NCBI GenBank assembly: GCA_903825245.1
Contig: CAIJZX010000015.1
Location: forward strand, 28,564 to 92,563
From: Candidatus Kerfeldbacteria bacterium
GTDB lineage: Bacteria; Patescibacteriota; Patescibacteriia; SBBC01; CAIJZX01
DNA: 64,000 nucleotides
Direction of reading: 5' to 3'
Shown here: positions 16,901-53,901 of the stretch, piece by piece
How positions within the stretch are numbered: position 1 is the stretch's first letter
Layout of the letters: every line of letters begins with the position of its first letter
Program-made: the position numbers and the translations under genes
The notes under the pieces: model-generated
The model's input: only the letters and a program-made list of their open reading frames with translations
Told to the model about the DNA's origin: nothing
Databases searched by the model: none

Positions 16901-17254
16901 ATGGAAATTAACAAGGATCTTATCGCCGCGTCCTCAACCCCAATCGTCTTAGCGACCCTCGCGAAGCGGGAGAGTTATGGCTACGCGATTTTGAAGCAGG
17001 TGCAGGATGCCTCGGGTCAGCACATCGAATGGACCGACGGCATGCTGTATCCGGTCTTGCATCGTCTCGAGCGGCTGGGCTACATCGACGGCACCTGGAA
17101 AGACGCGGACAGCGGACGGAAGCGGAAGTACTATCGGATCACGTCTCGGGGGCGAAAACAGTTGGCCGACGAGCTCAAACAATGGCGCGCGGTAGACGCG
17201 ACGATTCGCGGTATCCTACCGGCCATGACCATGCAACTTTCTCACCGCCTATGA
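16901..17254 (+). CDS. PadR family transcriptional regulator
   Basis: Winged-helix PadR motifs (YGYAILKQV...MLYPVLHRLERLGYI). Confidence 0.85.
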   Translation: MEINKDLIAASSTPIVLATLAKRESYGYAILKQVQDASGQHIEWTDGMLYPVLHRLERLGYIDGTWKDADSGRKRKYYRITSRGRKQLADELKQWRAVDATIRGILPAMTMQLSHRL

Positions 17255-18603: not shown

Positions 18604-18627
18604 AACGGTATCTTATTCTTCTGACCA

Positions 18628-18981
18628 ATGTCTCAGCTTACGATTGCCCACAAAACTGCCATCCGCCAAGCGCTAACAACTGCTAGTGCCGTTGTACCGT
18701 TTTTCGAAAAAGCATATCCGAAAGATAAGCGACCACGACGAGCGATCGAAGCGGGGAGAGCATGGTTGCGCGGAACTATGAGCGTTGGCGATGTTCGAAA
18801 AGCGGCGTTTGCCGCACATGCGGCGGCAAGAAAAGCGAAGAGTCCAGCGGCGCGAGCTGCGGCTCGCGCCGCTGGACAAGCCGCGTCAACCGTTCACGTC
18901 CTAGGTCATGCTCAGCATGCTCTTGATTACGTCGCAAAAGCGCGTAAATTTGTGCGTCAAAAATCAACACCGAAGAACTAA
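18628..18981 (+). CDS. hypothetical Ala-rich all-alpha protein (immunity-protein-like?)
   Basis: 117-aa ORF with a repeated AARAA/AHAAAR pattern. Confidence 0.5.
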   Translation: MSQLTIAHKTAIRQALTTASAVVPFFEKAYPKDKRPRRAIEAGRAWLRGTMSVGDVRKAAFAAHAAARKAKSPAARAAARAAGQAASTVHVLGHAQHALDYVAKARKFVRQKSTPKN

Positions 18982-33100: not shown

Positions 33101-36100
33101 GGTCGTTTCGGATTGACACGAGTGGCGACGTCTGTCACGTAACGAACGTGGAGTTGAATCCGAATGGAACGCAGCGCACCAATAATCCAAACTACTACCC
33201 GCCGATCAGTATTTCGGCGCTACCTACGGATACATCGTGTCATACACTAACTGCGTCGGGGAGTACGACCTGGACAAATTCCAAGCCAGCCGTCGGGACG
33301 ATTAATACGACGACGTCTGCTCAATCAAATATTCTCACGGCGCCGGCTGCAGGCGCGGCGTATAGTTCGACGACAGTTACCGCCAAAATACAATCAATCA
33401 CCAGCGCCCCAGGATTTACCCTGGAAGTGAGTCCGACCGGTTGCGCCTCGACGTCGGATTGTTTGAAGAATCGATTCGGCGCTTCTTGTAATGGTTCAAT
33501 GTGTCAGGGTGGACAATGTACGCCGGTGGTGAATAGCATAGTGCCGAATGTTGGGCCGGTCGGTGAATGGACAACGCTTAATGGTTGCTGGTTCGGAGCG
33601 TACGTGTTGGGTGCCAGCAAGGTGAATTTCTCTCCGTCAACTACCGACCCGTCTTCACCAGGTACCGAGGCTGATACTCCGGACGCTCTTATTTGTGGCA
33701 ACACCTGGACGAATGAACAGATTATCCGCATTGTTCCGCCGACCGCCGCGACAGGACCCATTCAGGTGATTCGCGGTGCGGATGGCTTCAAATCAACCGT
33801 TCTCGCTACCGGCGTACCGATCGGTTGGGGGGCTACCTTGGCTACGCAATCGACCGATGTGCCGACAGGTCACACAGGTTTTTCGGGAATGGCGGATGCG
33901 CCTAGCGGTGGACCTCAAGCATGGCTCGCTCAAGAGTTGCCGGGAACAAATACCGTTGGTGCGAAATATCATGTGATCGGTTGGGTTAAGGGGACTATTG
34001 TAGGAGGGTCAACAGCTGGTCTTATCACACGGTGTTCGGCAGATGTTGTTGGTGAAACCTGTGGGTACGATCTCTTGGGGGCTGCTCCAGGACTTCTCCT
34101 ATCAACGACCGGGTGGAAAAAGATAGATTTCTACATTACCAATAGCAATCCGGCGGATAATGATAAAAATATTTCGATTGACTGTTTTGCTAATCCAGGA
34201 AGTAAAATCTACTGCGACGATATCACCGTTACTAATGCGGATACTGGCGCGGTAGTGCCGGTCAATAACCCAAGTTTTGAAACGACAACGCCAATTTTTA
34301 CCGTCAATACTGCCGCCGTTGACCCGGGTATTTGTAAAATTGATCCTGTCTTCGGTCAGCAAGGCTCAGGCTTCAAGGTTTCCGGTAGCGCCTCACTCAT
34401 ATCAGCGGCTGGTACGCCGAGAAAATTCAGCTTTACAAATGGAGCAACCGTCGATGATGATGAAACTACCGCATTGCCGTGGACGACAACGACCGTGAAC
34501 GGTAAGGTACCGGGCACAGCAACACTCGGGTCAAATGAGGTGACGGCTACCATCAACGGAAAAACAAGTAATCCGCTACAGTACTCGGTGGATCCAGCAA
34601 CTTGTGCGCAAACCTGTAATACCGATGCGGAGTGCAATGTTGTGGGCAGCGATATTAATGGTTGTGGAACTCCCCAGGCGGCACTCGGTGGTTTAGGTTG
34701 CTGCGCGACACGGCCGAAAATTTCCTCTACGAATCCGGCGCAAGGGGCAACAAATATTTGTCTCAACCCGGCACCAAAAATTACGTTTGACCAACCGCTT
34801 GATCCATCAACTATTACCGCCGGACCATCAGGTACGGTGCAATACAAAGATGGATCACGGAGCGTTAACGGTACGGTGAGTTACCGAACAACAGCTACGA
34901 ACGAAGGGGAAATAACCTATTATCCTGGACTCTTATCAGCAAATAGTGCTCAGTCGATGTCATTTATATCATATGTTCCCGATCCTGGGACGACGTTGAT
35001 AGTTAAAAATCCAAGTTTTGAAACCCTGACGTCGGGGGGAGCACTTGACCCATGGAATGGATTCTCATCGCGAATTACACAGGCTGACCCGGCGCCGGGA
35101 CAACCGGTAGGATCGCATTCGGGGTTGGCTGATAATTCTGCTAGTTCTAGTGGTCAGGTGGCTTTGGCCCAAAATATTGCCAATACGAACGTCGTTGGAA
35201 CGACCTATCGCGTGACCGGCTGGGTAAAGGTGGGACATGTGAGCGGATCTGAAGTTGCCGGGTTAATTACACGATGTAGTGACGGTTCCGCCTGCGGATT
35301 TGATCTTTTTGGTCAGGCGCCGGGACTTTGGGGCGCGAGTAATAGTTTATCGGATTGGACTAAACTCGACTTCATGGTAACAAAAACGAGTGGTTTACCA
35401 AGCGTTAACCTTAACATTGATTGTTTCGCTAATGCGAAAAATAAAATCTGGTGTGACGATATCACGGTCACCAAAATGATCCCCAGTTTGATACCGAATG
35501 CTATCCGCGGTGCAAATGGCGTAGCGGCGGATGTAACTGGTTCACCGTTGACGTTTACCACGAACGCTACCATGTGTACGCCCGATAAGGTTAAAATTAC
35601 CCCCGTCAGCAAAAAGTTTGTTTCATCAGCTGATGCAACGTTTTCTGCGAAAATATATACTTCCGACGACGTTGAATTTTCCCCACTGCCCGGGCTGACA
35701 TTGGAATGGACATGGCTGAGTAGTACGCCGACGGTTGCCTCGGTTACTAAAATAGTGGCAACGCCGAATACCGCCACTGTTCATCCGGTTGTGAATGGCG
35801 CCACGACGATTACCGCGACGACAAAAGTAAGTGTAGCGCCTGGCAGTGTAGCAGCTGGCGCTTTGGATGCATCAATAAATGGACGCGAGATAAGTGGCCA
35901 ATCAGATGTTCAAGTAAAATTCTGTGCGAGTCCGTGGTCGTTTAGCGATACAGATTCAAACTGTGACACTGGTGGAACCTGCGAAGCTTTTAATTTCTCG
36001 ACGGATTACTGCGGTGACACTAGCGGAGCACCACTGCCGTCATTTTCCTACGAAGGCACTCTCCCCGGAATCGGTTCGATTGAAGGGGCGAACCTGGTTG

Positions 36101-37068
36101 ACACTACCCGATTGAAGAGCTACTTCTTTAAGGAGTCGGGGGTTAGTCGTGATACGATCGGGCTGCTCATCTTTAAAAATGATAACTTCCTGTCGCCGCA
36201 CGATTGGTTTACGCAGCGCTTCCCACTTGATTCTAGTGCTTCGTCAACCACGGTGGCGGGGTATCCGGCGGTGAAGTCGGGGACGACAACGTATATTGGT
36301 GTGACCGACTTATGGCACAATCCTGCAACAGGTAATGACGAATTGCGCGGGTTAATGTTCGTCTTCGACTACAATTCAAATAATGCTAGTCCGGAAACAG
36401 TAAATATCGCAGATCAATTACTGAGTGGCCTGCAGTTTAATACGAATTTCTCCGACTCCACCCAAAAAGCTCAGGTTATTCGCGACACGCTTCGCCGCCA
36501 GGATCTTACCTCGATGAAATTATCACTTGAGGCGTATAAGACGAAGAATGGCGCATATCCGGCTTTATCGGCGGGGTCGTATATTCCGGGGTTTTCGACG
36601 TCGGCGTGGCCGTCATGGCAATCAACACTTGGTAGTGCACTCGGTACAACAATCCCGACCGATCCAGTCAATTTGTTTGTTCGGCACTGCGTGGCGGATC
36701 CGACGAGAGCCTGTCGGGTCAAAAATGACTGTACATATATGTCCGCAGGTCGTATGGTGCAAGATACCTGTGGCACGGTGTCGGCTTGTGTATCTTCGGC
36801 TACTGATTCACATGAATCATCGACGTGCTGGTCGGAACCGGACAAGAATTTCCAATGCCCAACAAGTTCCGCGGTAAATATGTTCGGCGACACGATTGGC
36901 GGTTCACAACTCTACGCGTACCGTGCGCAAGGTGGTGGTGTCGATTTGTATACGACTATGGAATACCGCGGTGCCGGTTCGTTTATTCCCGCTGTTTTAC
37001 CAACTGGAATTTGTGCCGCTCCAAACGCCTGCGACTGTTTTAACTACTCGATGCATATTGGCTCATAA
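30121..37068 (+). CDS. giant (2315 aa) secreted surface protein: N-terminal VirB2/TrbC-like pilin hairpin anchor, multiple S-layer-type Ig-like domains, two CBM4/9-like modules, Cys-rich modules
   Basis: The frame is uninterrupted for 6.9 kb and Thr/Gly/Asn-rich. The N-terminus has a signal peptide and two hydrophobic helices (IIKWALGLLALVAVSYMIYGGYVWM ... AAIGLVIVLLSWAIVLFV). Repeated VPRS..I.F...VDP.SVT..NF.V motifs are Big/SbsA-Ig-like. NPSFET...W starts precede the duplicated ITRCS..CG(Y/F)DL(L/F)G...IDCFAN...(I/W)CDDITVT modules. Minus-strand ORFs inside are shadows. Confidence 0.85.
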   Translation: MRRSHMLRQRSLALLSITLIFGGLVAFVHAPHVHAATATTYSLESIGGQVGLGNADLKQVIINIIKWALGLLALVAVSYMIYGGYVWMTAAGNEARVEKAKQIILQAAIGLVIVLLSWAIVLFVTKSLLNVTTNTDAGTTCTPGVDCAIPPVTGDEFDITAINTCAVPPKTYENVPRSSSVSITFNTDVQTTPNYVQTAVGTGADDLQIVKICTDLAAGCVVGSPIAPNPAPIDNQVYTSGPKPTATAADLPQKAEWVLKDNSLTFYHLTLAQCKDGTKIGQTCAADTDCTDPDATTHVCQKTDRYFDASSTYRVTIPKDTNTKALKDVRGRVLQSCGVPGLGGAIDHCTSDANNFYYTFTTGTDTSGPAFDVVNTAPSSAYIEDTTLTVDRNVPRSEILSINFSGGVDPASVTTDNFRVYKITNTPTNLNDGTCTGPGPAFAHINCPETTVDPNDFNIRVSASGQGIVLQYKDPTKWFDAYTWYRVDVKDILNLCGTSAKRSWVFETNNVTPGVEYVYPNTGFGFSCPSTDVYAQFTTSMMNIAASTSSCFTGNATSFNTQLEMYKYTAPVGMITPRLNWKFDQPPVGATDPNNYCKHLWYDPTTDSLPIDSELGISITTDRAKDAAGTKLTYGDTVPGPMPTSDPVGSWHFMVKKPGECANAPVVQSVSPGVDANGACISVLGKYFTDPAKPAPGTTYPRAIDTLDLSSKVQGLSTIKSWTDNTIVNRLDAGTGAGALTPNAGSDPATYYNYKVGVKYDAPIGLLESQVTPSSHFQLKAGAASNRPCLTSVIPDQGYAGVTKFEANGENFGTATGSIVTNNATDWVQSPATPWIPTKVENILVKASAVPMTTAVQIKNADGISNAVNFEVLPPATPGTNPAPEVITDTTCNLAGGTIPSPNPVNGDTIACKNSEITVRFTTNLDSSTVNSGTVQVVSAGPVIPLSITTVGNLVTIKPTIITDMFTSGQTYSVTLTTGIKSTAGVAMTAPYPWSFRIDTSGDVCHVTNVELNPNGTQRTNNPNYYPPISISALPTDTSCHTLTASGSTTWTNSKPAVGTINTTTSAQSNILTAPAAGAAYSSTTVTAKIQSITSAPGFTLEVSPTGCASTSDCLKNRFGASCNGSMCQGGQCTPVVNSIVPNVGPVGEWTTLNGCWFGAYVLGASKVNFSPSTTDPSSPGTEADTPDALICGNTWTNEQIIRIVPPTAATGPIQVIRGADGFKSTVLATGVPIGWGATLATQSTDVPTGHTGFSGMADAPSGGPQAWLAQELPGTNTVGAKYHVIGWVKGTIVGGSTAGLITRCSADVVGETCGYDLLGAAPGLLLSTTGWKKIDFYITNSNPADNDKNISIDCFANPGSKIYCDDITVTNADTGAVVPVNNPSFETTTPIFTVNTAAVDPGICKIDPVFGQQGSGFKVSGSASLISAAGTPRKFSFTNGATVDDDETTALPWTTTTVNGKVPGTATLGSNEVTATINGKTSNPLQYSVDPATCAQTCNTDAECNVVGSDINGCGTPQAALGGLGCCATRPKISSTNPAQGATNICLNPAPKITFDQPLDPSTITAGPSGTVQYKDGSRSVNGTVSYRTTATNEGEITYYPGLLSANSAQSMSFISYVPDPGTTLIVKNPSFETLTSGGALDPWNGFSSRITQADPAPGQPVGSHSGLADNSASSSGQVALAQNIANTNVVGTTYRVTGWVKVGHVSGSEVAGLITRCSDGSACGFDLFGQAPGLWGASNSLSDWTKLDFMVTKTSGLPSVNLNIDCFANAKNKIWCDDITVTKMIPSLIPNAIRGANGVAADVTGSPLTFTTNATMCTPDKVKITPVSKKFVSSADATFSAKIYTSDDVEFSPLPGLTLEWTWLSSTPTVASVTKIVATPNTATVHPVVNGATTITATTKVSVAPGSVAAGALDASINGREISGQSDVQVKFCASPWSFSDTDSNCDTGGTCEAFNFSTDYCGDTSGAPLPSFSYEGTLPGIGSIEGANLVDTTRLKSYFFKESGVSRDTIGLLIFKNDNFLSPHDWFTQRFPLDSSASSTTVAGYPAVKSGTTTYIGVTDLWHNPATGNDELRGLMFVFDYNSNNASPETVNIADQLLSGLQFNTNFSDSTQKAQVIRDTLRRQDLTSMKLSLEAYKTKNGAYPALSAGSYIPGFSTSAWPSWQSTLGSALGTTIPTDPVNLFVRHCVADPTRACRVKNDCTYMSAGRMVQDTCGTVSACVSSATDSHESSTCWSEPDKNFQCPTSSAVNMFGDTIGGSQLYAYRAQGGGVDLYTTMEYRGAGSFIPAVLPTGICAAPNACDCFNYSMHIGS

Positions 37069-42055: not shown

Positions 42056-42372
42056 ATTTATAACAATTATCCACACCATTATCAGTACGTGGCGTCGGAA
42101 AAGATTACCCAATCAGACGCTAGGGAAGAAAACCATTCAAAATACTGAGCATCTCGTGGGGTTTGACCATCACTACATGTAGTAGTATACTGATGCTGTT
42201 ATACACCAGATGTAGTGGTAGCAAAAAATGGCCACTACCTCATAGACCAAAAACAGACGGGAACATTACCAAATCCACTCGCCGGCGTCGGCACCTAGCC
42301 ACCCTGATCTCGCCGGATGACACTATCTCCGTTTTACCGACGGCGCGGTTCGCGCCGACTTCATTTTCTCCC

Positions 42373-42873
42373 ATGAAATGCCCCTCTTGCCACAATTCTG
42401 ATACCAGCGTGATGGATTCACGAGTGACAGAAGAAGGGTTAGCGATTCGCCGCCGCCGAGAATGCGATCGTTGCGGCTATCGGTTCTCGACAGTTGAAGA
42501 GGTTGAAATATTAAACCTAGCGGTGATTAAACGCGCCGGTCATCGAGAGCCGTATAATCGAGAAAAGTTGGAGAACGGCCTACGGAAGTCGCTCGAGAAG
42601 CGGCCAGTAACGGTTGAAGATTTTAAACGATTAGTGGGGCAAATTGAGCGCGATATTCAGGTTCGCGGTCGAACAGAAATAACGTCGCATCAAGTCGGCG
42701 AACTGGCCATGAAACGGTTACAAAAAATGGATCAGGTTGCCTACATTCGTTTTGCCTCGGTCTATCGGAAGTTCCAAGACATTGAATCATTCAAACGGGA
42801 ACTTAACGCTCTGCCGAAGCAGGCGCCTCGACCGGGACAAACACTTCGTCGCCGAACAAAAAACGCTAAATAA
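42373..42873 (+). CDS. nrdR: transcriptional repressor NrdR
   Basis: N-terminal zinc ribbon MKCPSC...CDRCGYRF and ATP-cone domain. Start at ATG 42373, which is internal to the 42163 ORF. Confidence 0.88.
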   Translation: MKCPSCHNSDTSVMDSRVTEEGLAIRRRRECDRCGYRFSTVEEVEILNLAVIKRAGHREPYNREKLENGLRKSLEKRPVTVEDFKRLVGQIERDIQVRGRTEITSHQVGELAMKRLQKMDQVAYIRFASVYRKFQDIESFKRELNALPKQAPRPGQTLRRRTKNAK

Positions 42874-42903: not shown

Positions 42904-45900
42904 ATGTCCGAGACTTTAACCACCTCCGAAACAACTACCACCACGACGACACTTCCGTTGTCGACTCGTCGCGGTCCGGGTATGCGCATCCAGCGACTAT
43001 TCACGATGGCGGGACAGGATCCGCTGGAGCAGTTGCAATATGAACGACGGAGTTCGGTGATAAAAAATCCGGATGGCACTATTGTAAAAGAAATAAAGGA
43101 TGTCGAAGTCCCCGTAACCTGGAGTCAGGTGGCCACCGATATTCTGGCGCAGAAGTATTTCCGCAAGGCGGGCGTGCCGCAGGTTGATGGGCAAGGGAAA
43201 CCGATTATCGGTGCAGACGGAAAACAGATGATTGGACCGGAACGTAGTGCTAAACAGGTAGTACGACGGCTAGCAGGGACCTGGCGCTGGTGGGGAGAAA
43301 AACACGGCTACTTTGCCACACCGGAAGATGCTCAGGCGTATCAAGATGAAATGGCCGCGATGCTGATTCGTCAGATGGCGGCGCCGAATTCACCGCAGTG
43401 GTTTAATACTGGGTTGAATTGGGCATACGGTATTACCGGACAACCACAAGGCCACTATTACGTTGATCCACAAACTGGTGCGCTGCAGCAGTCCGCCGAT
43501 GCCTATACGCACCCGCAGCCACACGCCTGTTTCATTCAGAAGGTGAACGACGATCTCGTTAACGAAGGTGGTATTTTTGATCTGGTCACACGCGAAGCGC
43601 GGCTGTTTAAATTCGGCTCCGGTACTGGTAGTAATTTTTCGAATCTTCGCGGTAAAGGAGAAAAACTCTCCGGTGGTGGTTCGAGTTCGGGATTAATGTC
43701 GTTCCTGAAGATCTTTGATCGTTCCGCCGGCGCTATCCAATCGGGCGGGACGACACGACGAGCGGCGAAGATGGTGGTCATTGATGCTGATCACCCTGAC
43801 GTGGAAGAATTCGTGGATTGGAAAATGAAAGAAGAACAGAAAGTAGCTGACCTGGTCGCCGGTAGTAACATCAATGCGGTTGAGTTGAATGAAATTATGC
43901 GCGTGGCCAAGCAGGAAAATACCATTGATTATCATAAAAATGCCGCGCTCGGGAAAGTTGTTCGCCATGCCCTGCAACGACACGTGTCACTGTCCTACGT
44001 GATGCGCGTGTTGGCGCTCGTTGAGCAAGGCCATGATCATCTCGACGTGGCGACATTTACCACCCACTTCGAAGGCGAAGCCTATAATACCGTTTCCGGT
44101 CAGAATGCGAATAATACCGTACGTGTGACGAACGACTATATGACCGCGGTGGAGCGCGATGATGCCTGGAATTTATTGTGGCGGACAAATCGAGACATTG
44201 CTCGGACAATTCCCGCCCGTCGACTGTGGGAAGAAATCGCCTATGCCGCCTGGGCGAGTGCTGATCCGGGCTTGCAATTTGATACTACGATTAATGAATG
44301 GCACACCTGTCCGGAAGATGGTCGCATCAATGGTTCAAACCCGTGCTCGGAATATATGTTCCTCGACGATACGGCCTGTAACTTGGCTTCGATTAACCTG
44401 GCGCATTTCACGAACGCCGAGACCGGCATGTTTAACACGGAAGCGTTCCGCCACGCTTGCCGATTGTGGACGATCACGTTAGAAATCTCTGTTTTGATGG
44501 CACAATTCCCGGGTAAAGAAATTGCGAAACTCTCCTACGTCTTTAGAACACTCGGTCTGGGGTATGCCAATCTGGGGACGATTTTGATGATGATGGGTGT
44601 GCCGTACGATTCGCCGCAAGCCTTAGCAATCGCCGGATCAATTTCATCATTGATGACCGGTGAGGCGTACGCGACGAGCGCGGAAATGTCCAGCCACCTT
44701 GGAACTTTTACGGGGTACGAACGTAATAGTAAACACATGCTCCGTGTTATTCGTAATCATCGCCGGGCTGTTTATAATGCTCCCGCCAGTGAGTATGAAG
44801 GCCTCAGCATTGTACCGATGGGCGTCGATCCGAAAGTTGCGCCGGAATATATGTTGAAATCGGCCCGCGATGCCTGGGATCGGGCGCTGCAATGGGGAAA
44901 CGAATATGGATTCCGCAACGCGCAAGTAACCGTTATTGCGCCAACCGGAACGATAGGCTTACTCATGGATTGCGATACGACTGGTGTTGAGCCGGATTTC
45001 GCCATTGTGAAGTTCAAGAAACTCGCTGGCGGCGGATACTTTAAAATCGTGAACCAGTCAGTAACAAAGGCACTTCGTCGTCTTGGGTATTCGGAAGATC
45101 AGATTCGTGACATTGATGGTTACTGCAAAGGCTTCGGTACGCTGAGTGGCGCGCCACATATCAACCATGAAACGCTGAAAGCGAAAGGCATGACCGGCGA
45201 AGATATTGCTAAAGTTGAACTGGCTCTCGTCGGTGCGTTTGATATTCGCTTCGTTTTCAACGCTGCAACACTGGGCGCAGAAATATTGACTCGTGTCGGT
45301 CTTGGCAGTAAAGCAAATGATCCGTCTTTAAACGTGCTCGAAGCGCTCGGTTTTTCCAAGGAACAAATTTCAGCTACGAATGAGTATGTGGTCGGCACGA
45401 TGACGATCGAAGGTGCCCCGCATTTGAAAGAAGAACACTACCCGATTTTTGATTGCGCGAACACCTGTGGGGTGAAAGGCAAACGCTACATCGCCTACAA
45501 CGCACATATCAAAATGATGGCCGCGGTTCAGCCGTTCATTTCCGGTGCAATTTCCAAAACGATTAATATGCCGGCGACGGCCACGATCGAAGAGACGAAA
45601 CAAGTATATTGGGATTCGTGGAAGATGATGTTGAAAGCGGTAGCGCTCTACCGTGATGGGTCGAAACTTTCGCAACCGCTCAATAGCACCTCGGAAGAAG
45701 ACGAAATCGTAGCGCTGGGCGAACTTGACGATGATGTGGCCGAAGTGACGCCAAAACAAATGCACGACTTAGCTGCGGTGCGTGCGGTCAAAGAAAAACT
45801 TCCAGCTAAGCGCGTCGGTTGGACACAGGAAGCGATTGTCGGTGGCCACAAAGTATTTATTCGCACCGGTGAGTACCATGATGGCCGACTTGGTGAAGTC

Positions 45901-46395
45901 TTCATCGACATGTATAAAGACGGTGCGGCCTATAAATCGCTGATTAACTGTTTCGCTATTGCTATCTCGAAAGGCTTGCAGTATGGTATTCCGCTTGAAG
46001 AGTATGTCGATACATTTACCTTCACGCGGTTTGAGCCGGCTGGTTCGGTGCAAGGTCACCCGAACTTGAAAATGGCTACCTCAATTCTCGATTACATTTT
46101 CCGACTCCTCGGATATGAATATCTCAATCGTGAAGACCTTGTCCAAGTTAAACCCGATCATGCCAATGATCCAGTCCAGGCACATCTCCCGACCATGGCG
46201 GCGTCCGCACCAGTCGCTGTTGTTACGCCGACGAAGCCGATTGAAATGAGCGCTACCGAACCAGACACTCGATTGACTGCCAAGGCGCAGGGTTTCACCG
46301 GCGATACCTGCACGGCCTGCGGCTCGATGAAGATGAAACGCAACGGTTCCTGTATGGTTTGTATCGAGTGTGGAACGACGACCGGGTGTAGTTAA
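42904..46395 (+). CDS. nrdJ: class II (adenosylcobalamin-dependent) ribonucleoside reductase NrdJ, 1163 aa
   Basis: RNR catalytic barrel motifs (NPCSEY with catalytic Cys/Glu region, thiyl-radical Cys loop) and C-terminal Cys cluster CTACGS...CMVCIECG. It lies downstream of nrdR. Confidence 0.88.
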
Positions 46396-46512: not shown

Positions 46513-47052
46513 ATGGAACTACTTATATCGATATTCATAGGGATCATACGATGGATCTCAAACGGACTATTGGTTTCCCTCCTCGGTATAGGTGTATATG
46601 TTCTTTTTAAAAAAAGAACCTTAAACGATCTTGCAGTAGACAAGCTTTTTCATTGGTCAGTAAAAATTTTCCTGGTGTACAGCATTATCGTGTCATTAGA
46701 TTCCGCATCGTTTTTTGTAGCCATGAATGCTTTTGGTGGTAAGGCCTCCTCTACGAGAACACTATTTGTTGCATTACTACTGTTTCTGTTTAGTATCCTA
46801 CCCGCGGTTATGATTTTTCTAGAACGAAACAGGAATGTATCCCGAGTTCGACGATGGGCTTGGTTTGCTTTAGTGCTAGAAGTGGCTGGGTATGTATTTT
46901 CGATATTTCAATCGGGATTTTTTTTCAATGGAGTATTAAGCGAACTGGTAACCATTGCCGCAATCATGCCGCCGGTGGTACTTTTACTTCTGGTTCGAAA
47001 AAAAATTCAGAACAGCGCCCCAGTAGTAACAAAAGTTGCAAGCGCCTTATAG
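46513..47052 (+). CDS. hypothetical polytopic membrane protein
   Basis: 179 aa with 5 predicted TM helices. It is preceded by the motif CTAAAGTGCTATACT. Confidence 0.5.
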   Translation: MELLISIFIGIIRWISNGLLVSLLGIGVYVLFKKRTLNDLAVDKLFHWSVKIFLVYSIIVSLDSASFFVAMNAFGGKASSTRTLFVALLLFLFSILPAVMIFLERNRNVSRVRRWAWFALVLEVAGYVFSIFQSGFFFNGVLSELVTIAAIMPPVVLLLLVRKKIQNSAPVVTKVASAL

Positions 47053-47145: not shown

Positions 47146-47481
47146 ATGCCAAACTCTGAACAAATTAAGCACGATGTAAGCAGCGAGGTTAAGAAAATTT
47201 CGCCCACGACGGATCGCAATCTTCTAGCGGCCGTGAGTTATGTGTGGATTCTATCACTGGTGATGCTCATGATGAAAAAGGATGATGCGTTTGTCCAATT
47301 TCATGCTAAGCAAGCGTTGGTACTGTTCATTCTGAGTTTACTCGGCTTCATTCCGATTATCGGCTGGTTAGTGGCGTTTTGCGCTTTCATTGGCATGATC
47401 ATCGGTTTCCTTCATGCCTGGCAAGGGAAAGAATATCAAATCCCGTTCGTCTACGGCTGGTCACAGAAGATTCATTTTTAG
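47146..47481 (+). CDS. DUF4870 (TM2-like) small membrane protein
   Basis: Conserved FHAKQALVLFIL... pattern. It is preceded by the same CTAAAGTGCTATACT motif. Confidence 0.65.
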   Translation: MPNSEQIKHDVSSEVKKISPTTDRNLLAAVSYVWILSLVMLMMKKDDAFVQFHAKQALVLFILSLLGFIPIIGWLVAFCAFIGMIIGFLHAWQGKEYQIPFVYGWSQKIHF

Positions 47482-47830: not shown

Positions 47831-47963
47831 CTTTTAATTACTCAGTGCTGAATAATAAACAAAACCGACCCTGGCATTGGTGGTACTGGGTGGGAATTGT
47901 TTTGCTGACTGTACCGGCAGTTTATTCGGTAGGCACAATGATCGTCTTTGCTTTCACGCCACA

Positions 47964-48536
47964 ATGAAAATCAGGCCGCACAAACTCCATCTCGCAGATC
48001 GCGGTCTCGTCCATGCCTATATTGGCGACGGCAAAGGAAAAACCACGGCCGCGGTCGGCACGGCGGTTCGCGCCGCCGGGCACGGTTGGAAGATTTTGTT
48101 TTTACAATTCATGAAGGAAGAACAATGGCCGAGCGGGGAGCGGTCGAGTTTGCGGAAACTGGGCGTCGAGGTGTTGGTACTCGGCGAAGGATTTTTCAAA
48201 ATCATGAACGATCGCAAACCGGAAGAGCTGCACATGGTAGCTGCTAATCGGGCATTGGATATGGCCAAAGAAAAATTGTTATCCGGTAATTATCAGCTCG
48301 TGATTCTCGATGAACTTGGTTCGGCGGTTGACGAAGGATTGCTGGAACGGAAAGCCGTCGAGAGAATGTTTAAAGATCATAAAAAAAGCAAAACTGCAAA
48401 GCAGGTGCACCTGATTTGGACCGGTCATAAAAAAATTCCCTGGATGTTAAAGTACGCGGATTTGGTGACGGACATGAAAAAAATCAAACACCCGTTTGAT
48501 AAACATATTATTGCGACGAAGGGATTGGATTATTAA
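47964..48536 (+). CDS. cobO: cob(I)yrinic acid a,c-diamide / corrinoid adenosyltransferase (CobO/BtuR family)
   Basis: P-loop GDGKGKTTAAVG and the CobA/CobO family pattern (ILFLQFMKEEQW..., VILDELG). Confidence 0.8.
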   Translation: MKIRPHKLHLADRGLVHAYIGDGKGKTTAAVGTAVRAAGHGWKILFLQFMKEEQWPSGERSSLRKLGVEVLVLGEGFFKIMNDRKPEELHMVAANRALDMAKEKLLSGNYQLVILDELGSAVDEGLLERKAVERMFKDHKKSKTAKQVHLIWTGHKKIPWMLKYADLVTDMKKIKHPFDKHIIATKGLDY

Positions 48537-48877: not shown

Positions 48878-49351
48878 ATGTTAAATATTTCTGTAAATCG
48901 TCGGCTCCTCAGTATTACTGGTATTGGCGGTGCGATTGCGTTAACTATTTGTGGTGGTGGCATACAATTGCTGCCTATACCTTGGTTTTCGAATATTGTT
49001 TTTTCACCTTGGGGTATGTGGTTGGCAATACTTCTCGGATTAATGAGTTTTCTTGGAACACCAATTCTCCTGACACTACTGGTTTGGCGATGGGAATCTT
49101 TTTCGAAAGGATGGATGGGAGTGGTCATGCGCTGGCTACTTGGTTGTATAGCAATTTTGTTGGGATGGTTACTCACTGAGGCGGCGGGAACACTTGGTCT
49201 ATGGCGTGACTTGCCTTCTTTTATTAAGGACATGCTTTCTACTTCAGGTACATACTACGTTATAAGCGGCGGATCAGCACTTATCGGTTTTCTCGATTGG
49301 TTTTTCTTTACTCGACACTGGGGAAAGAAGGCGTTGACGACGCCGAAGTAG
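48878..49351 (+). CDS. hypothetical membrane protein
   Basis: 157 aa with four TM helices. Confidence 0.4.
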   Translation: MLNISVNRRLLSITGIGGAIALTICGGGIQLLPIPWFSNIVFSPWGMWLAILLGLMSFLGTPILLTLLVWRWESFSKGWMGVVMRWLLGCIAILLGWLLTEAAGTLGLWRDLPSFIKDMLSTSGTYYVISGGSALIGFLDWFFFTRHWGKKALTTPK

Positions 49352-49369
49352 TAGCGTATTATCATTTCA

Positions 49370-49605
49370 CGGCAAGCAGGTGAATCCACGTAAAACTCCT
49401 TCGGAGTCACGTGGCACAGTCCTGCAGGGTCCCGCCACCGTACACTCGGACGCCGTCCCACACATGTGGGAGAAGAAAAAGACCTTCGTGGAAAGGCCCC
49501 TCGATTCTCTCCGTTCACTCGGGGCAGGCTCACTGGGGAAAGGAGTGACGCTACAGCATTATTCCTGCCTACACCGCGTTGGCAGGGCATTTATTTATTT
49601 CTCTG
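49370..49605 (+). ncRNA. probable cobalamin (B12) riboswitch with terminator-type expression platform
   Basis: Contains GGTGAATCC, GTCCCGCCACCGT (B12-box-like, one mismatch to GCCACTG) and CACTGGGGAAAGG. An upstream TTGACG-17-TATTAT promoter lies at 49334-49362. A 3' hairpin CCTGCC...GGCAGG is followed by a T-rich tract (49563-49602). The overlapping ORFs 49380-49616 and 49255-49590 have no protein support. Confidence 0.55.
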
Positions 49606-49639
49606 GTGTCGTTTAGCGCCGGAGTAACCCTCCAACCGT

Positions 49640-50005
49640 ATGAAACGTTTCTCGATACTTTCGATTCTTTTACTCGGCTTGACGATGGCCGGAGCGAGTT
49701 GTGGATTAACCACATCGTCGGCTACGAACACTGCTAAAACAACCATCAATAAAGCGATCAATACCGCCAAACAACAAGCAGTTTCCTATACTGGCCAAGC
49801 GGGCAAAAACGCGCTAGACTTGCTGAAGTCCGGTCATGCTGTTGACGTCTCTCCAGAGGGCTTTGTCAACGCTATCGACGGCGTGAAACCGGGCGATCAT
49901 CAATTCTGGGCACTCTACGTCAATGGCAAACAAGCCGAAGTCGGGGCAAAAGATTACATTACCAAAAAAGGCGACACGGTTGAGTGGAAACTCGAATCGT
50001 ATTAG
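49640..50005 (+). CDS. DUF4430 domain secreted protein (cobalamin-binding-like)
   Basis: Signal peptide is present. The C-terminal FWALYVNGKQAEVGAKDYITKKGDTVEWKLESY matches the DUF4430 pattern, and the gene sits after the riboswitch. Confidence 0.65.
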   Translation: MKRFSILSILLLGLTMAGASCGLTTSSATNTAKTTINKAINTAKQQAVSYTGQAGKNALDLLKSGHAVDVSPEGFVNAIDGVKPGDHQFWALYVNGKQAEVGAKDYITKKGDTVEWKLESY

Positions 50006-50018
50006 TTCGTTGTTACAT

Positions 50019-50555
50019 ATGTCGTCACCAGTGTCGGCATCCGTCGTTCATCACAAACATACCTTCGGTGGAGTGACGTTACCGACAATCATCCCGCAGA
50101 AAAAAGTATCGGCAACACCCGGCGCGACGGCATGGCGCGATGCGATATTGGCACTGGTGATGGCCGCTGGTTTATCGACAGTCTTTCTTTCACCGTTCCA
50201 TATTGCTTCGACGATAAAGTCTGTACCGACTTCGGGACGAATTCTCGGTGAAGCAACAACGGTGCCGCTCCATATCGAGGTTGTGGTGTCAGATGCTGCC
50301 CAAACGAAACGTGTCACGGTCTATCCAACGACTGGCACTATTGCCCAGGCACTTGGTCAAGCCGCCGCCCAACTACAAACGTCGTTCGATTATACGAGCC
50401 GTGGCGCATCAATATACCTCGCCGATTTCGATGCATTGCCAAACGCGGTTACCGGTACGTGGACCGTTCGGGTAAACGGTGCAGCCATTACCGATCTCAG
50501 TCAACAATCTTTAGCTCAGGGCGATCAATTGACGCTTGATTATCACTCTCTATGA
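50019..50555 (+). CDS. second DUF4430-like membrane-anchored protein
   Basis: TM anchor is present. The C-terminal GTWTVRVNGAAITDLSQQSLAQGDQLTLDYHSL is DUF4430-like. Confidence 0.55.
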   Translation: MSSPVSASVVHHKHTFGGVTLPTIIPQKKVSATPGATAWRDAILALVMAAGLSTVFLSPFHIASTIKSVPTSGRILGEATTVPLHIEVVVSDAAQTKRVTVYPTTGTIAQALGQAAAQLQTSFDYTSRGASIYLADFDALPNAVTGTWTVRVNGAAITDLSQQSLAQGDQLTLDYHSL

Positions 50556-51112
50556 AACGCTGGTCATCCTCAACATTTCTTGTCATCGGTTTAGTTATTA
50601 TCGCGGCGTTGATTCGTATCGCCCGAAATTCTGGCTGGCTTCCATTGCCTCCGAATGTTGCGCCGATTACCGCCATGGCATTACTCAGCGGTGCACTGCT
50701 TCCACGTCGCTGGACGTTTGTGGTACCTCTGTCAGCCATGCTCGTCAGTGACCTTGTCATCGGTTTCTATTCACTACCGGTGATGCTGGTTGTCTACGGC
50801 GCGTTTGCGGTCAGTAATGTGATTGGCTTGTGGCTCCGTAAACGCCAATCATTGGGTAGAATTTTTGGCGCGAGCTTACTCGGCTCCACCGTATTCTTTG
50901 TGTTGACCAACACAGCGGTATGGGCGTTTCAGGCAATGTATCCGCATTCAGTATCCGGCCTGATACAGGCCTTTGTCGCTGGATTACCATTCTTTCGTAA
51001 CACCGTGATCGGTGACCTAGGTTTCTCGGCAATATTCTTTGGTGTCTACGCTTTGGGCATGGTATACTGGCAGCGACGTTTGACACTACTAACGTCATCA
51101 ACTCATGGCTGA
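50552..51112 (+). CDS. polytopic membrane protein, putative vitamin/B12 transporter substrate-capture component
   Basis: 186 aa with 5-6 TM helices. It overlaps the DUF4430 gene stop and lies in the riboswitch operon. Confidence 0.4.
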   Translation: MKRWSSSTFLVIGLVIIAALIRIARNSGWLPLPPNVAPITAMALLSGALLPRRWTFVVPLSAMLVSDLVIGFYSLPVMLVVYGAFAVSNVIGLWLRKRQSLGRIFGASLLGSTVFFVLTNTAVWAFQAMYPHSVSGLIQAFVAGLPFFRNTVIGDLGFSAIFFGVYALGMVYWQRRLTLLTSSTHG

Positions 51113-52037
51113 CATCCGCCGCTACCAACCTCGCCGATCCTCCAATTCCGGAGGCGGGTGGGTTCGTTGGGTTGTGCTGATTGTTATGGTAATAATTGTC
51201 GCGGTAGTGGTCAAGAGTCTCATCGGTTCGAAGAAAACCCCATCGCCAGCGCGAACAACAGGGAAAGCCGCCAGTACCGGCATTGATCTGGTAACGGATA
51301 ATGCGAATTCGGCAATTAATACGGCACCGACCAATGCCGCGGTGAACGGAAACACAAATTCGACGACGAATACGAACACCGCAGTAATTGCTACATCGGG
51401 TTCATGGAAGAATTTTTCTGTTACGTCATGCTCAGCCGCGATTTCTTCGGCGGGAGTAAAAAAACAAGTAGCCTTAACGTTTGCCGTTTCAGCGGCGAAC
51501 GATCAAGTCAATCAAGTTCTTGAGGTTTTGAAAAAAGCTGCAGTGCCGGCTGACTTCTTTGTGACCGGTGCGTTCGCCGAAAAAAATCCGGCCGTGGTGA
51601 AAACAATTTCCCAAGACGGTTTTTCCGTCTACAGTCAAAGTTATGACAGTACGGACTTGACCAAGCTCACGAGCGCCGGTGTAACGAGCGCGATTACCAA
51701 AGCCGAAGCGGCTATTATTTCTGCAACCGGTATTTCACCAAAACCGATTTTTCGTCCACCATCCGGGAGCTTTACAACACAAACTGTCAAATTGCTGAAC
51801 CAAGCCGGGTATTGTGCGATACTCTGGACAGTTGATGCCTATGATTGGCAAGACGGAATCACTGCTGCGCAAGCCCAAGATCGCGTCATGACGGCGCTAG
51901 ATAAGCAATCAGGCGGCGGTATCGTAGCGCTGCATGCTGGGTATGACGTGACGCCATCGGTGGTAACAAGTCTACTCTCGACTCTGAAAACACAAGGATA
52001 TACGGTAGTCTCATTGGCGGCGATGTTAAATAAATAA
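51105..52037 (+). CDS. polysaccharide deacetylase (NodB homology) with N-terminal TM and Asn/Thr-rich linker
   Basis: NodB-type motifs (QVALTFAVSAAND; FRPPSGSF; ALHAGYD). Confidence 0.75.
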   Translation: MADIRRYQPRRSSNSGGGWVRWVVLIVMVIIVAVVVKSLIGSKKTPSPARTTGKAASTGIDLVTDNANSAINTAPTNAAVNGNTNSTTNTNTAVIATSGSWKNFSVTSCSAAISSAGVKKQVALTFAVSAANDQVNQVLEVLKKAAVPADFFVTGAFAEKNPAVVKTISQDGFSVYSQSYDSTDLTKLTSAGVTSAITKAEAAIISATGISPKPIFRPPSGSFTTQTVKLLNQAGYCAILWTVDAYDWQDGITAAQAQDRVMTALDKQSGGGIVALHAGYDVTPSVVTSLLSTLKTQGYTVVSLAAMLNK

Positions 52038-52038
52038 C

Positions 52039-52602
52039 ATGTTCTCGGTCTCTCGGCGTGTCAGTTTTTCCATTGTCGTAGCCCTGCTATTGGGCTGGGG
52101 TATTTTTATTATTCTCTTTCTTCAATCATCAAGCGTACTTCTTTCCTCGTCTACCACCGATCAAGGGTTGACGATTCTGCCTAGCGTCCGACTAAGTGTG
52201 CAGATTGATAAACACGTGTATGCATCAGGTGATGCGGTGTTGATTGCGGTACGGAATGATAGCCGGGTGCCGATCTACGTCCAGCAAGCTGCCGATGGTT
52301 GCTCTACAAATTGGTGGTCTATCGAGCAATTGCAAGCAGATGGTGAACATTGGGAAAGTATTCTCACCACCAAGCAAACTTGTCCGACACCATCTTCGAT
52401 GATTGAGTTTCCAAAACACTCATTACGAAGTGATCAGTGGCAAGCGATAGTTCCGGGATCGATTGGTGATGTGTTAGTGGGTGCACCAAGTGGGACATAT
52501 CGAGTGGTGGTGCCGTATTTGACAGGCAAGTCTAGCGTTGCGCCTACCTGGCCGGAGAGTGGCTTTGCTACCGCAGTTTCACCGACGTTCTCTATTCAAT
52601 AG
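52039..52602 (+). CDS. secreted Ig-fold protein (BsuPI proteinase-inhibitor-like?)
   Basis: Signal/TM then a beta-rich domain (VYASGDAVLIAVRNDSRVPIYV ... GTYRVVVPYL). The BsuPI resemblance is weak. Confidence 0.45.
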   Translation: MFSVSRRVSFSIVVALLLGWGIFIILFLQSSSVLLSSSTTDQGLTILPSVRLSVQIDKHVYASGDAVLIAVRNDSRVPIYVQQAADGCSTNWWSIEQLQADGEHWESILTTKQTCPTPSSMIEFPKHSLRSDQWQAIVPGSIGDVLVGAPSGTYRVVVPYLTGKSSVAPTWPESGFATAVSPTFSIQ

Positions 52603-52707
52603 CACGGACACGCCAGCATCGATTCTTTTTCAGTACTTTTTCAGGTTGACAAGAGAATATACCCGCTCGCATACTATAGGAAATATTATCTTATTCGCTT
52701 TAAAGAT

Positions 52708-53901
52708 ATGGAAACACCAACACCTTCATCGCCGGTGAAATCGGCAAATTCAAATTTTCTCGCTACCGTTGTCGTAAGTGTAATTATCGGTGGACTAACC
52801 GGGGGTTTGGTTAGTTACAGTGTTTGGCAAACTAAGGGTGGAACCACATCTGTGTCGACAACAACCACGAAACAAGCCGTCTCGGTTCAGGAAAGTTCGG
52901 CTACTATTGATGTAGTCAAGAAAGCAAATCCGGCAGTGGTCAGCATTATTATTTCCCAAGACTACTCTAAAATTTATGGTGGTCAAACCACATCGCCATA
53001 CGACTTTTTCTTTGGTCAACAATCAGTGCCGCAGGGATTGCAAACGATCGGTAGCGGCAGCGGATTTGTGGTGTCGGCGGATGGCATGATTGTCACGAAT
53101 AAACATGTGGTCAGCGATACGACCGCGAGTTACAGCGTGGTGATGAATGACGGAAAGAAATACGATGCCAAGGTATTGGCGCTCGATCCGGTCAATGATG
53201 TGGCGGTCTTAAAGATCGATGCCAAGAATTTGCCGGTACTCACGTTCGCTGATTCAAATAGCGTGCAAATTGGTCAAGCGGTTATTGCCATCGGCAATGC
53301 CCTCGGCGAATATAAGAATACAGTGACCGAAGGTATTATCTCCGGTTCAGCCCGTTCTATCACTGCCGGTGATAGTGCGACTGGTGCTTCGGAAACAATT
53401 GACAATGTCTTTCAAACCGATGCGGCAATCAACCCGGGAAATTCCGGTGGCCCGCTTCTTGATTTAACGGGAAACGTGATCGCCATCAATACGGCGGTTA
53501 ATTCCTCGGGTCAATCGATTGGATTCGCTATTCCCGCGAACGTTGTTAGTCGTGACGTCACCAGCGTCCAGAAAGACGGGAAGATTACCGCCGCCTATCT
53601 CGGTGTTCGCTATGTGCCGATTACGCAAGCTATGGCCGATCAAAACAAACTGCCGGTCAATCAAGGCGCCTTGGTCCAAAAAGCCGATGCCCAAAACCCA
53701 GCGGTGGTTTCCGGATCGCCGGCTGACAAAGCGGGATTAGTGGAAAATGATATTATTACCGCCGTGAACGGAACGGTACTTGATGACACGCATTCGCTGG
53801 CCGGAATCCTGGCGACGTTTAGCCCTGGCGATACCGTGACCTTCACCATCTATCACGGCGGCGTCAAGAAAGACGTCAAGATTGTCCTCGGTAGTCGATA
53901 A
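52708..53901 (+). CDS. htrA: HtrA/DegP family serine protease with PDZ domain
   Basis: Catalytic triad regions TNKHVV, D..AVLKI, GNSGGPLL, and a C-terminal PDZ domain. Confidence 0.9.
   Translation: METPTPSSPVKSANSNFLATVVVSVIIGGLTGGLVSYSVWQTKGGTTSVSTTTTKQAVSVQESSATIDVVKKANPAVVSIIISQDYSKIYGGQTTSPYDFFFGQQSVPQGLQTIGSGSGFVVSADGMIVTNKHVVSDTTASYSVVMNDGKKYDAKVLALDPVNDVAVLKIDAKNLPVLTFADSNSVQIGQAVIAIGNALGEYKNTVTEGIISGSARSITAGDSATGASETIDNVFQTDAAINPGNSGGPLLDLTGNVIAINTAVNSSGQSIGFAIPANVVSRDVTSVQKDGKITAAYLGVRYVPITQAMADQNKLPVNQGALVQKADAQNPAVVSGSPADKAGLVENDIITAVNGTVLDDTHSLAGILATFSPGDTVTFTIYHGGVKKDVKIVLGSR

Follow-up and report, generated by a model that had tools for sequence, protein, structure and literature searches.

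Among cobalamin riboswitches, the closest described relatives of the element reported here are those of class II without a P6 extension (RF01689, adenosylcobalamin (AdoCbl)-II; env8HyCbl type), which Rfam places together with RF00174 in clan CL00101. The consensus of loop L5 (UCCCG) has been published, and mutagenesis of the transcriptional corrinoid riboswitch of Priestia megaterium metE has proven that a kissing loop stabilises hairpin P13, whose 3' side, in the ligand-free state, is the antiterminator to the 5' strand of the terminator (PMC10327014). On the protein side, the closest described systems are ECF-CbrT, a B12-specific energy-coupling factor (ECF) transporter of Lactobacillus delbrueckii (PDB 6FNP) whose cbrT gene lies in the cluster nrdJ-cbrS-cbrT-pduO (PMC5997447), and BtuM, a solitary S-component-like B12 transporter (PMC6072759); a DUF4430-type C-terminal domain has further been reported in B12 carriers of the TCN type (PMC4350170). 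In the present work, we have analysed a 64-kb stretch of DNA from a Candidatus Kerfeldbacteria bacterium (contig CAIJZX010000015.1; hereafter the window, whose coordinates are used throughout), in which positions 49370-49600 very probably form a divergent, compact cobalamin (corrinoid) riboswitch that stands at the 5' end of an mRNA and controls a B12-uptake operon feeding the class II ribonucleotide reductase (RNR) NrdJ. A first-pass annotation of this DNA had proposed a cobalamin riboswitch controlling such an operon beside nrdJ, nrdR and cobO; the proposal is supported by a family covariance model, by covariation, by borderline Rfam matches of related leaders and by a synteny parallel to nrdJ-cbrS-cbrT-pduO, and it failed the RF00174 test of Rfam.

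Our analyses have identified a family of 17 homologous leaders from Kerfeldbacteria-like Patescibacteria, which share promoter, core and expression platform and are all parsed by a single regular expression. The loci (given here by L numbers) were gathered via the DUF6580 protein encoded downstream and not via the RNA, and extra members came from a metagenome scan with an invariant 18-mer, about 30 of whose 42 matches were chance occurrences inside coding regions. In the closest relatives, the DUF6580 proteins are 55-66% identical and the leaders are homologous to that of the window. The promoter and the aptamer core of the window, the latter delimited from the segmentation of the 17 members, covariation, the covariance model R1 (see below) and the relatives aligned to the RF01689/RF00174 core, consist of the following elements:

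49334-49362, + strand, sigma-70-type promoter: TTGACG (49334-49339), 17-nucleotide (nt) spacer, TATTAT (49357-49362); 10 of 12 matches in the promoter scan
49370-49455, + strand, cobalamin-type aptamer core
49370-49373 with 49452-49455, + strand, helix P3: CGG(C) with (G)CCG
49376-49380 with 49421-49425, + strand, helix P4: GCAGG with CCUGC
49381-49420, + strand, loop L4, with an inserted 29-nt hairpin at 49386-49414
49428-49430 with 49434-49436, + strand, helix P5: GGU with GCC, the loop and flanking bases UCCCG being the L5 consensus
49438-49440 with 49447-49449, + strand, helix P6: CCG with CGG
49450-49455, + strand, J6/3 and the 3' strand of P3: ACGCCG, the B12-box equivalent

This segmentation, in which P4, P5 with an L5 equal to the published UCCCG, P6 and the J6/3 B12 box are closed by P3, fits 17 of 17 members, and the L4 insertion of the window type recurs in L086 and L007. 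Its statistical support comes from an alignment of 15 members (A3), which excludes both the window and L086, the latter having been dropped from the seed after MAFFT misplaced its P4 strand and used as a second held-out test. The helices pair in 94.8% of the cells of A3, as against 80% in shuffles (0 of 500 reach the observed value) and no more than 53% in slid controls, and each of P3, P4, P5 and P6 contains at least one compensatory pair. RNAalifold recovers the same helices unaided and extends P3 by a fourth pair, in which the Y of GGYAA faces the G of ACG (C-G in 7 members, U.G in 7 and U-A in 1). An arrangement in which the 3' nucleotide of P3 pairs with the linker and not with the 5' end was rejected, since the x-y pairing suits 14 of the 17 members and covaries (C-G/A-U), unlike the alternative. 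The covariance model R1, built from A3, matches the window at 49366-49499 with 84.4 bits (E ~7e-17), which is the sole significant match in the 64 kb, and it scores the held-out L086 with 68 bits. Beyond the family, R1 matches the Rfam-verified cobalamin riboswitches of L006 (38.5 bits), L010 (26.3 bits) and L007 (24.3 bits), and it matches elements in 25 of 80 DUF6580 loci. The folding check suggested in the first-pass annotation showed the leader to be more stable than its shuffles (z = -3.4).

The identity of the individual elements is fixed by relatives, the close ones among which score 20-31.6 bits with the cobalamin models of clan CL00101; the window itself remains below the gathering threshold. 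The informative matches, restricted to the core, are as follows:

L085, RF01689, 26.7 bits, model positions 18-71
L090, RF01689, 25.4 bits, model positions 1-81
L091, RF00174, 23.7 bits, model positions 45-169
L087, RF00174, 31.6 bits, model positions 1-189
L041, RF00174, 26.5 bits, model positions 1-189

In these alignments, GGYAA takes the place of the GGGAA junction, GCAGG...CCUGC is P4, GGU-CCC-GCC is P5 with L5 UCCCG, CCG...CGG is P6, and (A)CUCGGACGCC is the J6/3 B12 box with the 3' strand of P3. For L085, L086 and L091, the match is a local one confined to the core. The RF00174 matches of L087 (2906-3055) and L006 (28-221) align the promoter region or the neighbouring hairpin Pa as 'P1/P2' with many non-canonical pairs, and the outer helices drawn by Rfam for these two loci look spurious. 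As read from its own sequence and those of its relatives, the leader is a real, highly divergent and compact member of the cobalamin riboswitch kind.

The alignments also revise the motifs on which the first-pass annotation had relied. All three are present, viz. GGTGAATCC at 49379-49387, GTCCCGCCACCGT at 49429-49441 and CACTGGGGAAAGG at 49531-49543, and two of them change their meaning. GTCCCGCCACCGT, taken earlier for a B12-box variant, aligns instead to GCCCCCGCaACUGUAA, the segment of L5, P5 and P6, and the equivalent of the B12 box is ACUCGGACGCCG at 49444-49455; CACTGGGGAAAGG, taken for a riboswitch hallmark, is not the canonical GCCACUG...GGGAAGGC element and forms a hairpin in an expression-platform insert restricted to a subgroup. 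Two further readings, with CACUGGGGAAAGG for the GCCACUG...GGGAAGGC element and UUCCUGCC for the B12 box, were discarded, as close relatives either lack these segments or vary in them; ACUCGGACGCC, in contrast to these, is conserved and aligns to J6/3 of RF01689.

The promoter TTGACG-17-TATTAT had been described correctly, and in 15 of the 17 family leaders an equivalent promoter matches 9-11 of 12 consensus positions and has its end 6-9 nt upstream of the first P3 nucleotide; in the window, transcription is predicted to start at about 49368-49370. Since the transcript predicted from this conserved promoter begins at P3, no space is left for P1 or P2; the segment directly downstream of P3, being a self-contained covarying hairpin (Pa), cannot serve as a strand of P1. 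The -35 element of the promoter lies inside the 3' end of the open reading frame (ORF) at 48878-49351. The segments that follow the core, up to the start codon of the operon, are listed below:

49456-49471, + strand, hairpin Pa (UCCCAC-ACAU-GUGGGA), directly 3' of P3 and in place of the 3' strand of P1
49472-49482, + strand, purine-rich linker GAAGAAAAAGA, family consensus RAAGAYAAGA, conserved in 17 of 17 members
49483-49496, + strand, hairpin P13: CCUU, loop CGUGGA (L13), AAGG; predicted kissing-loop partner of L5
49497-49563, + strand, subgroup-specific 67-nt platform insert, with a hairpin CCCC...GGGG, a GGCAGG copy at 49523-49528 and the hairpin UCACU-GGGGAAAGG-AGUGA at 49530-49548
49564-49600, + strand, terminator-like hairpin T: CCUGCC (49564-49569), 11-nt loop ending in GCGUU, GGCAGG (49581-49586), 3-nt spacer, U-rich tract UUUAUUUAUUU (49590-49600)
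49628-49636, + strand, pre-AUG segment CCCUCCAAC, 3 nt upstream of the AUG and complementary to GUUGGCAGGG at 49578-49587

Compared with riboswitches of the RF01689 type, the leader keeps the same order of core elements, i.e. the GGxAA junction, P4 with a loop of the U-G-x-A-A-U type, P5 with L5 UCCCG, a short P6 and a J6/3 reading (A)GUCGGACGCC where the consensus is AGUCcGAGcGCC, together with a P13 that could kiss L5 and a position upstream of B12 uptake genes. It differs in having neither P1 nor the outer part of the P2/P3 stack, so that the transcript seems to begin at the P3 of 3-4 base pairs (bp); in Pa and the RAAGAYAAGA linker, which stand in for the 3' strand of P1; in the change of GGGAA to GGYAA across the family, with the Y probably paired with the G of ACG; and in the 29-nt hairpin insert in L4, and it scores under every Rfam threshold. 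All five scored pairs of Pa covary across the family and RNAalifold predicts this hairpin independently; its loop is GUCGA(A) in 13 of 17 members and ACAU in the window.

P13, an element of a known type, falls within an 18-mer shared without change by 16 of the 17 members, L089 having one extra A. The layout of Pa, linker and P13 is found as well in the more distant L006, L041, L004, L007 and L023, and the same or a variant P13 motif stands 3' of canonical RF00174 aptamers in L118, L121, L009, L010, L027, L030, L040 and L060, and in Ignavibacteriota and Bacteroidota it is the variant RACCUUCGNGGGAAGG that stands after strong RF00174 aptamers. The exact 18-mer AAGACCTTCGTGGAAAGG occurs after canonical full-length cobalamin aptamers on two unrelated GC-rich metagenome contigs (L118 at ~2253-2439 and L121 at ~4209-4376, both on the - strand), just upstream of their ribosome-binding site and ATG, an identity across distant lineages that is striking. 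Within the family, L13 (CGUGGA) could form 3-4 pairs with UCCCGC, both P13 and L5 being invariant, and in L004 and L041 the corresponding CGGGA loops are fully complementary to UCCCG.

Hairpin T comprises 5-6 bp in each of the 16 members with this region, with U-A, U.G and C-G variation and a U-rich tract 2-4 nt after it; the stem in the window has 6 bp, five of them G-C, and the DNA form of its U-rich tract is TTTATTTATTT (49590-49600). The terminator hairpin (CCTGCC...GGCAGG plus T-tract) of the first-pass annotation stands as a conserved hairpin and tract, and its placement just before the ATG does not, as the hairpin ends 53 nt upstream. At the position of T, after P13, more distant relatives have textbook terminators. 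Ten members have a compact platform, and in them the P13 3' side, together with bases downstream of it, pairs with the 5' strand of the terminator (-8 to -11.5 kcal/mol, covarying and sharing the GG of P13), which is the same overlap as in P. megaterium metE. The window belongs to a subgroup of six (window, L085, L089, L099, L116 and L119), to which a comparable insert with a conserved GGGGAARRG is restricted; it differs from metE by the 67 nt inserted between P13 and the terminator, with an antiterminator pairing that is not evident. For the window, two candidate antiterminator partners of UUCCUGCC (49562-49569) can be named, GGCAGG (49523-49528) and GGGGAA (49535-49540). Exchanges of the P4 strands with T, or of the terminator 5' strand with the J4/5-P5 region, were rejected, since neither covaries when P4 is GCCGG, UCCGG or CCCGG.

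A further difference from metE is that the 3' strand of the terminator can also pair, at the start site, with a second partner that is conserved. The GUUGGCAGGG:CCCUCCAAC duplex amounts to -13.6 kcal/mol in the window and to -11 to -15 kcal/mol across the members, as against -6 to -10 kcal/mol in shuffles, lying well below these in most members, and the helix is favoured in the full-length minimum free energy folds of most of them. CCCUCCAAC is the sole copy of this motif before a start codon in the window. A loose Shine-Dalgarno (SD)-like motif precedes only about 11 of 55 starts there, the upstream regions being A/C-rich and nearly all genes lying on the + strand, which suggests that this organism initiates translation independently of SD sequences; in a largely SD-less genome, the GUUGGCAGGG-CCCUCCAAC helix could block initiation. 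The second partner suggests dual transcriptional and translational control, or a logic unlike that of the usual terminator model.

By analogy with metE, our best reading is that B12 would repress via termination, possibly reinforced at translation. Binding of a corrinoid would stabilise the L5-L13 kissing loop and with it P13; the strand CCUGCC (49564-49569) would then be freed to pair with GGCAGG (49581-49586), and the resulting terminator-like hairpin ahead of the U-rich tract would switch the operon off. The GUUGGCAGGG strand may also mask the SD-less start region at 49628-49636, adding translational repression. The operon, comprising a probable DUF4430 surface corrinoid binder, an anchored protein and a DUF6580 protein, would, along with CobO, supply AdoCbl to NrdJ.

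The genes of this proposed salvage module are the following:

42163-42873, + strand, NrdR (Pfam)
42904-46395, + strand, class II RNR NrdJ (Pfam)
47146-47481, + strand, DUF4870/MamF-like (MamF_MmsF-type) small membrane protein (Pfam)
47877-48536, + strand, CobO adenosyltransferase (Pfam)
49640-50005, + strand, gene 1, DUF4430 protein of 121 amino acids (aa): Pfam PF14478, E = 5.1e-15, 56.1 bits against a cut-off of 23.8
50019-50555, + strand, gene 2, 178 aa, no assigned family: N-terminal membrane anchor and conserved C-terminal domain of ~100 aa, syntenic in relatives
50552-51112, + strand, gene 3, DUF6580 membrane protein of 186 aa with six helices: Pfam PF20221, E = 4.6e-47, 160.7 bits against a cut-off of 27

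Pfam confirms nrdJ, nrdR and cobO near the leader, and no cob/cbi biosynthesis genes are present among the ~50 annotated ORFs of the window, in agreement with the earlier remark that no de novo B12 pathway is visible. The ORF at 46513-47052, considered as a candidate NrdR, has no family match, the true NrdR being that at 42163-42873. In close relatives, the order nrdJ, DUF4870, CobO, hypothetical gene, leader, DUF4430, gene 2, DUF6580, deacetylase, unknown gene and HtrA is maintained. It parallels the nrdJ-cbrS-cbrT-pduO cluster in the presence of nrdJ and a corrinoid adenosyltransferase, the latter of the CobO and not the PduO type in the window. Most likely, the leader controls a CbrT-like B12 salvage module.

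Gene 1 has a signal peptide and a cysteine (Cys21) that is invariant in nine orthologues, and phmmer finds weak matches to the C-terminal domain of transcobalamin (transcobalamin-2) in the PDB; it is probably a surface-anchored corrinoid-binding protein. Its likeness to the DUF4430-type C-terminal domain of transcobalamin and intrinsic factor consists in passing the DUF4430 threshold and in the weak transcobalamin-2 match; the difference is that gene 1 encodes a single-domain, secreted or lipid-anchored bacterial protein whose corrinoid binding is predicted. The operon had been annotated with two DUF4430 proteins, which holds for gene 1 and not for gene 2. The latter, whose true start is 50019, has no Pfam or NCBIfam match and is not a demonstrable DUF4430 member (1% probability by hhalign against the gene-1 profile; just one of eight orthologues with a Pfam match, at E = 0.013), and its AlphaFold2 model was unusable (predicted local distance difference test, pLDDT, 35); a homologue search gave no more than two proteins.

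Gene 3 is the small polytopic membrane protein noted earlier, and its proposed status as an undescribed B12 transporter type holds in part: it belongs to a known Pfam family that is remotely homologous to the characterised S-component CbrT, and our literature search found no paper naming DUF6580. A profile of DUF6580 searched against the PDB at E <= 10 has a single match, chain A of 6FNP (E = 1e-4 over residues 7-96, transmembrane helices TM1-3), a 182-residue chain that we take from its size to be the S-component CbrT; phmmer with a single DUF6580 protein finds nothing in the PDB. The AlphaFold2 model of gene 3 (pLDDT 90.6) has six helices, and the Foldseek matches with a TM-score of about 0.5 or more are ECF S-components only, at weak E-values (0.4-3). 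Gene 3 thus combines detectable homology to CbrT with its six-helix, S-component-like fold, the R...PNVxP and SD/N...GF motifs of TM1-3 also being matched, and it is predicted to be a CbrT-like corrinoid S-component or transporter. It differs from ECF-CbrT in that the similarity is marginal and covers half of the protein, in that no ECF module (EcfA, EcfA', EcfT) is found in the 64-kb window, whose ABC systems are of the MacB/FtsX and ABC-2 types, and in that DUF6580 stands beside TonB-dependent receptors in Gram-negative lineages. In being small and S-component-like, in standing by btuB-like receptors in Gram-negatives and in possibly working without an ECF module, DUF6580 resembles BtuM, of which PDB 6FFV is presumably the entry; it differs in showing no sequence similarity, the PDB profile search having found CbrT only. 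An assignment of gene 3 to BtuM was rejected, since the window protein has no cysteine, which makes a cobalt-ligating cysteine of the BtuM type impossible, and DUF6580 has no invariant Cys or His.

The DUF6580 family has at least 595 relatives in a species-level genome collection and is spread over Patescibacteria, Ignavibacteriota, Bacteroidota, Acidobacteriota and Proteobacteria. Among 31 DUF6580 loci drawn from many phyla, Rfam calls a cobalamin-clan riboswitch upstream on the same strand in 22, two of them from Kerfeldbacteria (L006 and L007), and none within the scanned flank of the remaining nine. Individual arrangements include nrdJ-riboswitch-DUF4430-DUF6580-PduO (L021) and riboswitch-TonB-dependent receptor-DUF6580 (L010).

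Several observations weigh against the reading of 49370-49600 as a corrinoid riboswitch that acts by termination on an uptake operon. The Rfam search of 49250-49700 at E <= 10 returned none of the three cobalamin models (RF00174, RF01482, RF01689) and only a chance match to MH_s10, so that the RF00174 check proposed in the first-pass annotation went against it, and at gathering score the whole window yielded two tRNAs and no cobalamin-clan match; P1 and P2, which would enclose the core, are absent, and the closing helix has just 3-4 bp. Rfam misses the leader because of the absent P1/P2, the change of GGGAA to GGCAA, the J4/5-P5 sequence AGGGU in place of GCUGC and the 29-nt L4 insert. The lack of an Rfam match, the missing outer helices and the absence from the window of the GUCGA loop of Pa might also be expected of a degenerate relic that has lost P1/P2, binds no ligand and now forms a structured 5' untranslated region behind a constitutive promoter. 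We regard such a relic as very unlikely, since the near-invariant core residues, the compensatory changes in every helix across 17 lineages whose DUF6580 proteins share only 55-66% identity, and the invariant P13 and linker argue for purifying selection on RNA structure and not for decay. Scarcely credible is a structured RNA for another ligand or a protein, with cobalamin-like motifs by coincidence: the window is Rfam-negative and one of the three supposed hallmarks is non-conserved, but R1 cross-matches Rfam-verified cobalamin riboswitches at loci gathered via the protein, the relatives align position by position to cobalamin models, and the gene context is entirely B12-related.

To these observations belong, on the side of mechanism, that the consensus terminator scan of the window does not call T, with its 11-nt loop, 3-nt spacer and interrupted U-tract (the loop exceeds the limit of the scan and the U-tract begins 3 nt past the stem), that no antiterminator was found in the six insert-bearing members, and that at most 3-4 L5-L13 pairs are possible, for which the family offers no covariation because P13 and L5 are invariant. 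In equilibrium folds, moreover, the terminator 3' strand prefers the pre-AUG segment with or without aptamer constraints, and hence it is by analogy only that an ON state and a sign of regulation are assigned here. A cobalamin riboswitch that acts mainly or only on translation would account for several of these points; T would then be an anti-sequestor, and the ligand would free GUUGGCAGGG to pair with CCCUCCAAC and block SD-independent initiation. Conservation of the GUUGGCRGGG:CCCACCAAC helix goes together with a strength far above that of shuffled controls, the pre-AUG helix is preferred in most full-length folds, the 'U-tract' of compact members is the loop of a start-site hairpin, the accessibility of start sites should matter in a genome without SD sequences, and T escapes the terminator scan. 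Nevertheless, this alternative appears unlikely, as distant relatives of the same aptamer-Pa-linker-P13 design carry textbook terminators with U-runs, compact members show the proven antiterminator design of P13 3' side and terminator 5' strand, and the position of the U-rich tract is conserved in all members, even where another hairpin precedes the start site. As to gene 3, its link to CbrT is weak, given the E-value of 1e-4 over TM1-3 and the Foldseek E-values of 0.4-3, the stop codon of DUF6580 overlaps the start of a polysaccharide deacetylase gene (51105-51112) in a conserved order, and nine loci lack a cobalamin riboswitch in the scanned flank, all of which would suit an S-component that serves another substrate, or a membrane protein partnering the downstream deacetylase and HtrA. 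It is nonetheless distinctly unlikely that gene 3 is not a B12 transporter, as 22 of 31 loci from many phyla stand behind a same-strand cobalamin riboswitch, its neighbours elsewhere are NrdJ, PduO, DUF4430 and TonB-dependent receptors, and its only sequence match in the PDB is a B12-specific S-component.

A wider interpretation, which goes beyond the corrinoid riboswitch favoured here and which we put forward tentatively as possible though doubtful, is that these leaders form a distinct corrinoid-riboswitch subclass widespread in Patescibacteria, in which a 5'-terminal P3 of 3-4 bp stacked on a 3' hairpin plus purine linker replaces P1/P2 and the switching strand serves both a terminator and a start-site sequestor, that it controls a three-protein, ECF-free B12 import, and that DUF6580 is a new, broad class of solitary corrinoid transporters.

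Some other features of the locus and the window were recorded. The stop codon of DUF6580 (TGA, 51110-51112) overlaps the start codon of the deacetylase gene (ATG at 51105; gene 51105-52037), further genes follow at 52039-53901, and the order DUF6580, deacetylase, unknown 187-aa gene and HtrA is kept in all close relatives; the riboswitch-controlled transcript may be longer than the three uptake genes. The syntenic ORFs flanking the operon, 48878-49351 and 52039-52602, have no Pfam or NCBIfam match. The DUF4870/MamF_MmsF-type gene is located between nrdJ and cobO in every relative examined, and its product may be part of the B12/RNR module. The ORF at 30121-37068 (2315 aa) combines a type IV secretion pilin-like N-terminus with a bacterial Ig-like (Big_5) domain, and its product is probably one of the giant surface proteins that are typical of episymbiotic Patescibacteria. 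In the region 17029-18981, a 524-aa ORF without a Pfam match stands immediately before the gene for an Imm5-like immunity protein (18628-18981); the two may be a toxin-immunity pair.

The concept of B12 salvage in such an organism was to be expected, and the useful part of the present work lies in the hidden RNA subclass and in the functional lead for DUF6580. An entire lineage of B12 riboswitches in Patescibacteria falls under the Rfam thresholds, most of its members having no or sub-threshold matches, and B12 regulons are therefore under-called in these reduced, auxotrophic bacteria; our literature search found no paper joining cobalamin riboswitches and Patescibacteria. The alignment and R1 could seed a new Rfam family or extend clan CL00101. 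Confirmation of an aptamer that needs no P1/P2 and is functional from the first nucleotide of the transcript would define a smaller cobalamin sensor, useful for structural work and synthetic switches. For DUF6580, the linkage to riboswitches and the remote homology to CbrT provide a concrete, testable function, and this lead bears on how the many B12 auxotrophs without BtuCDF import the vitamin.

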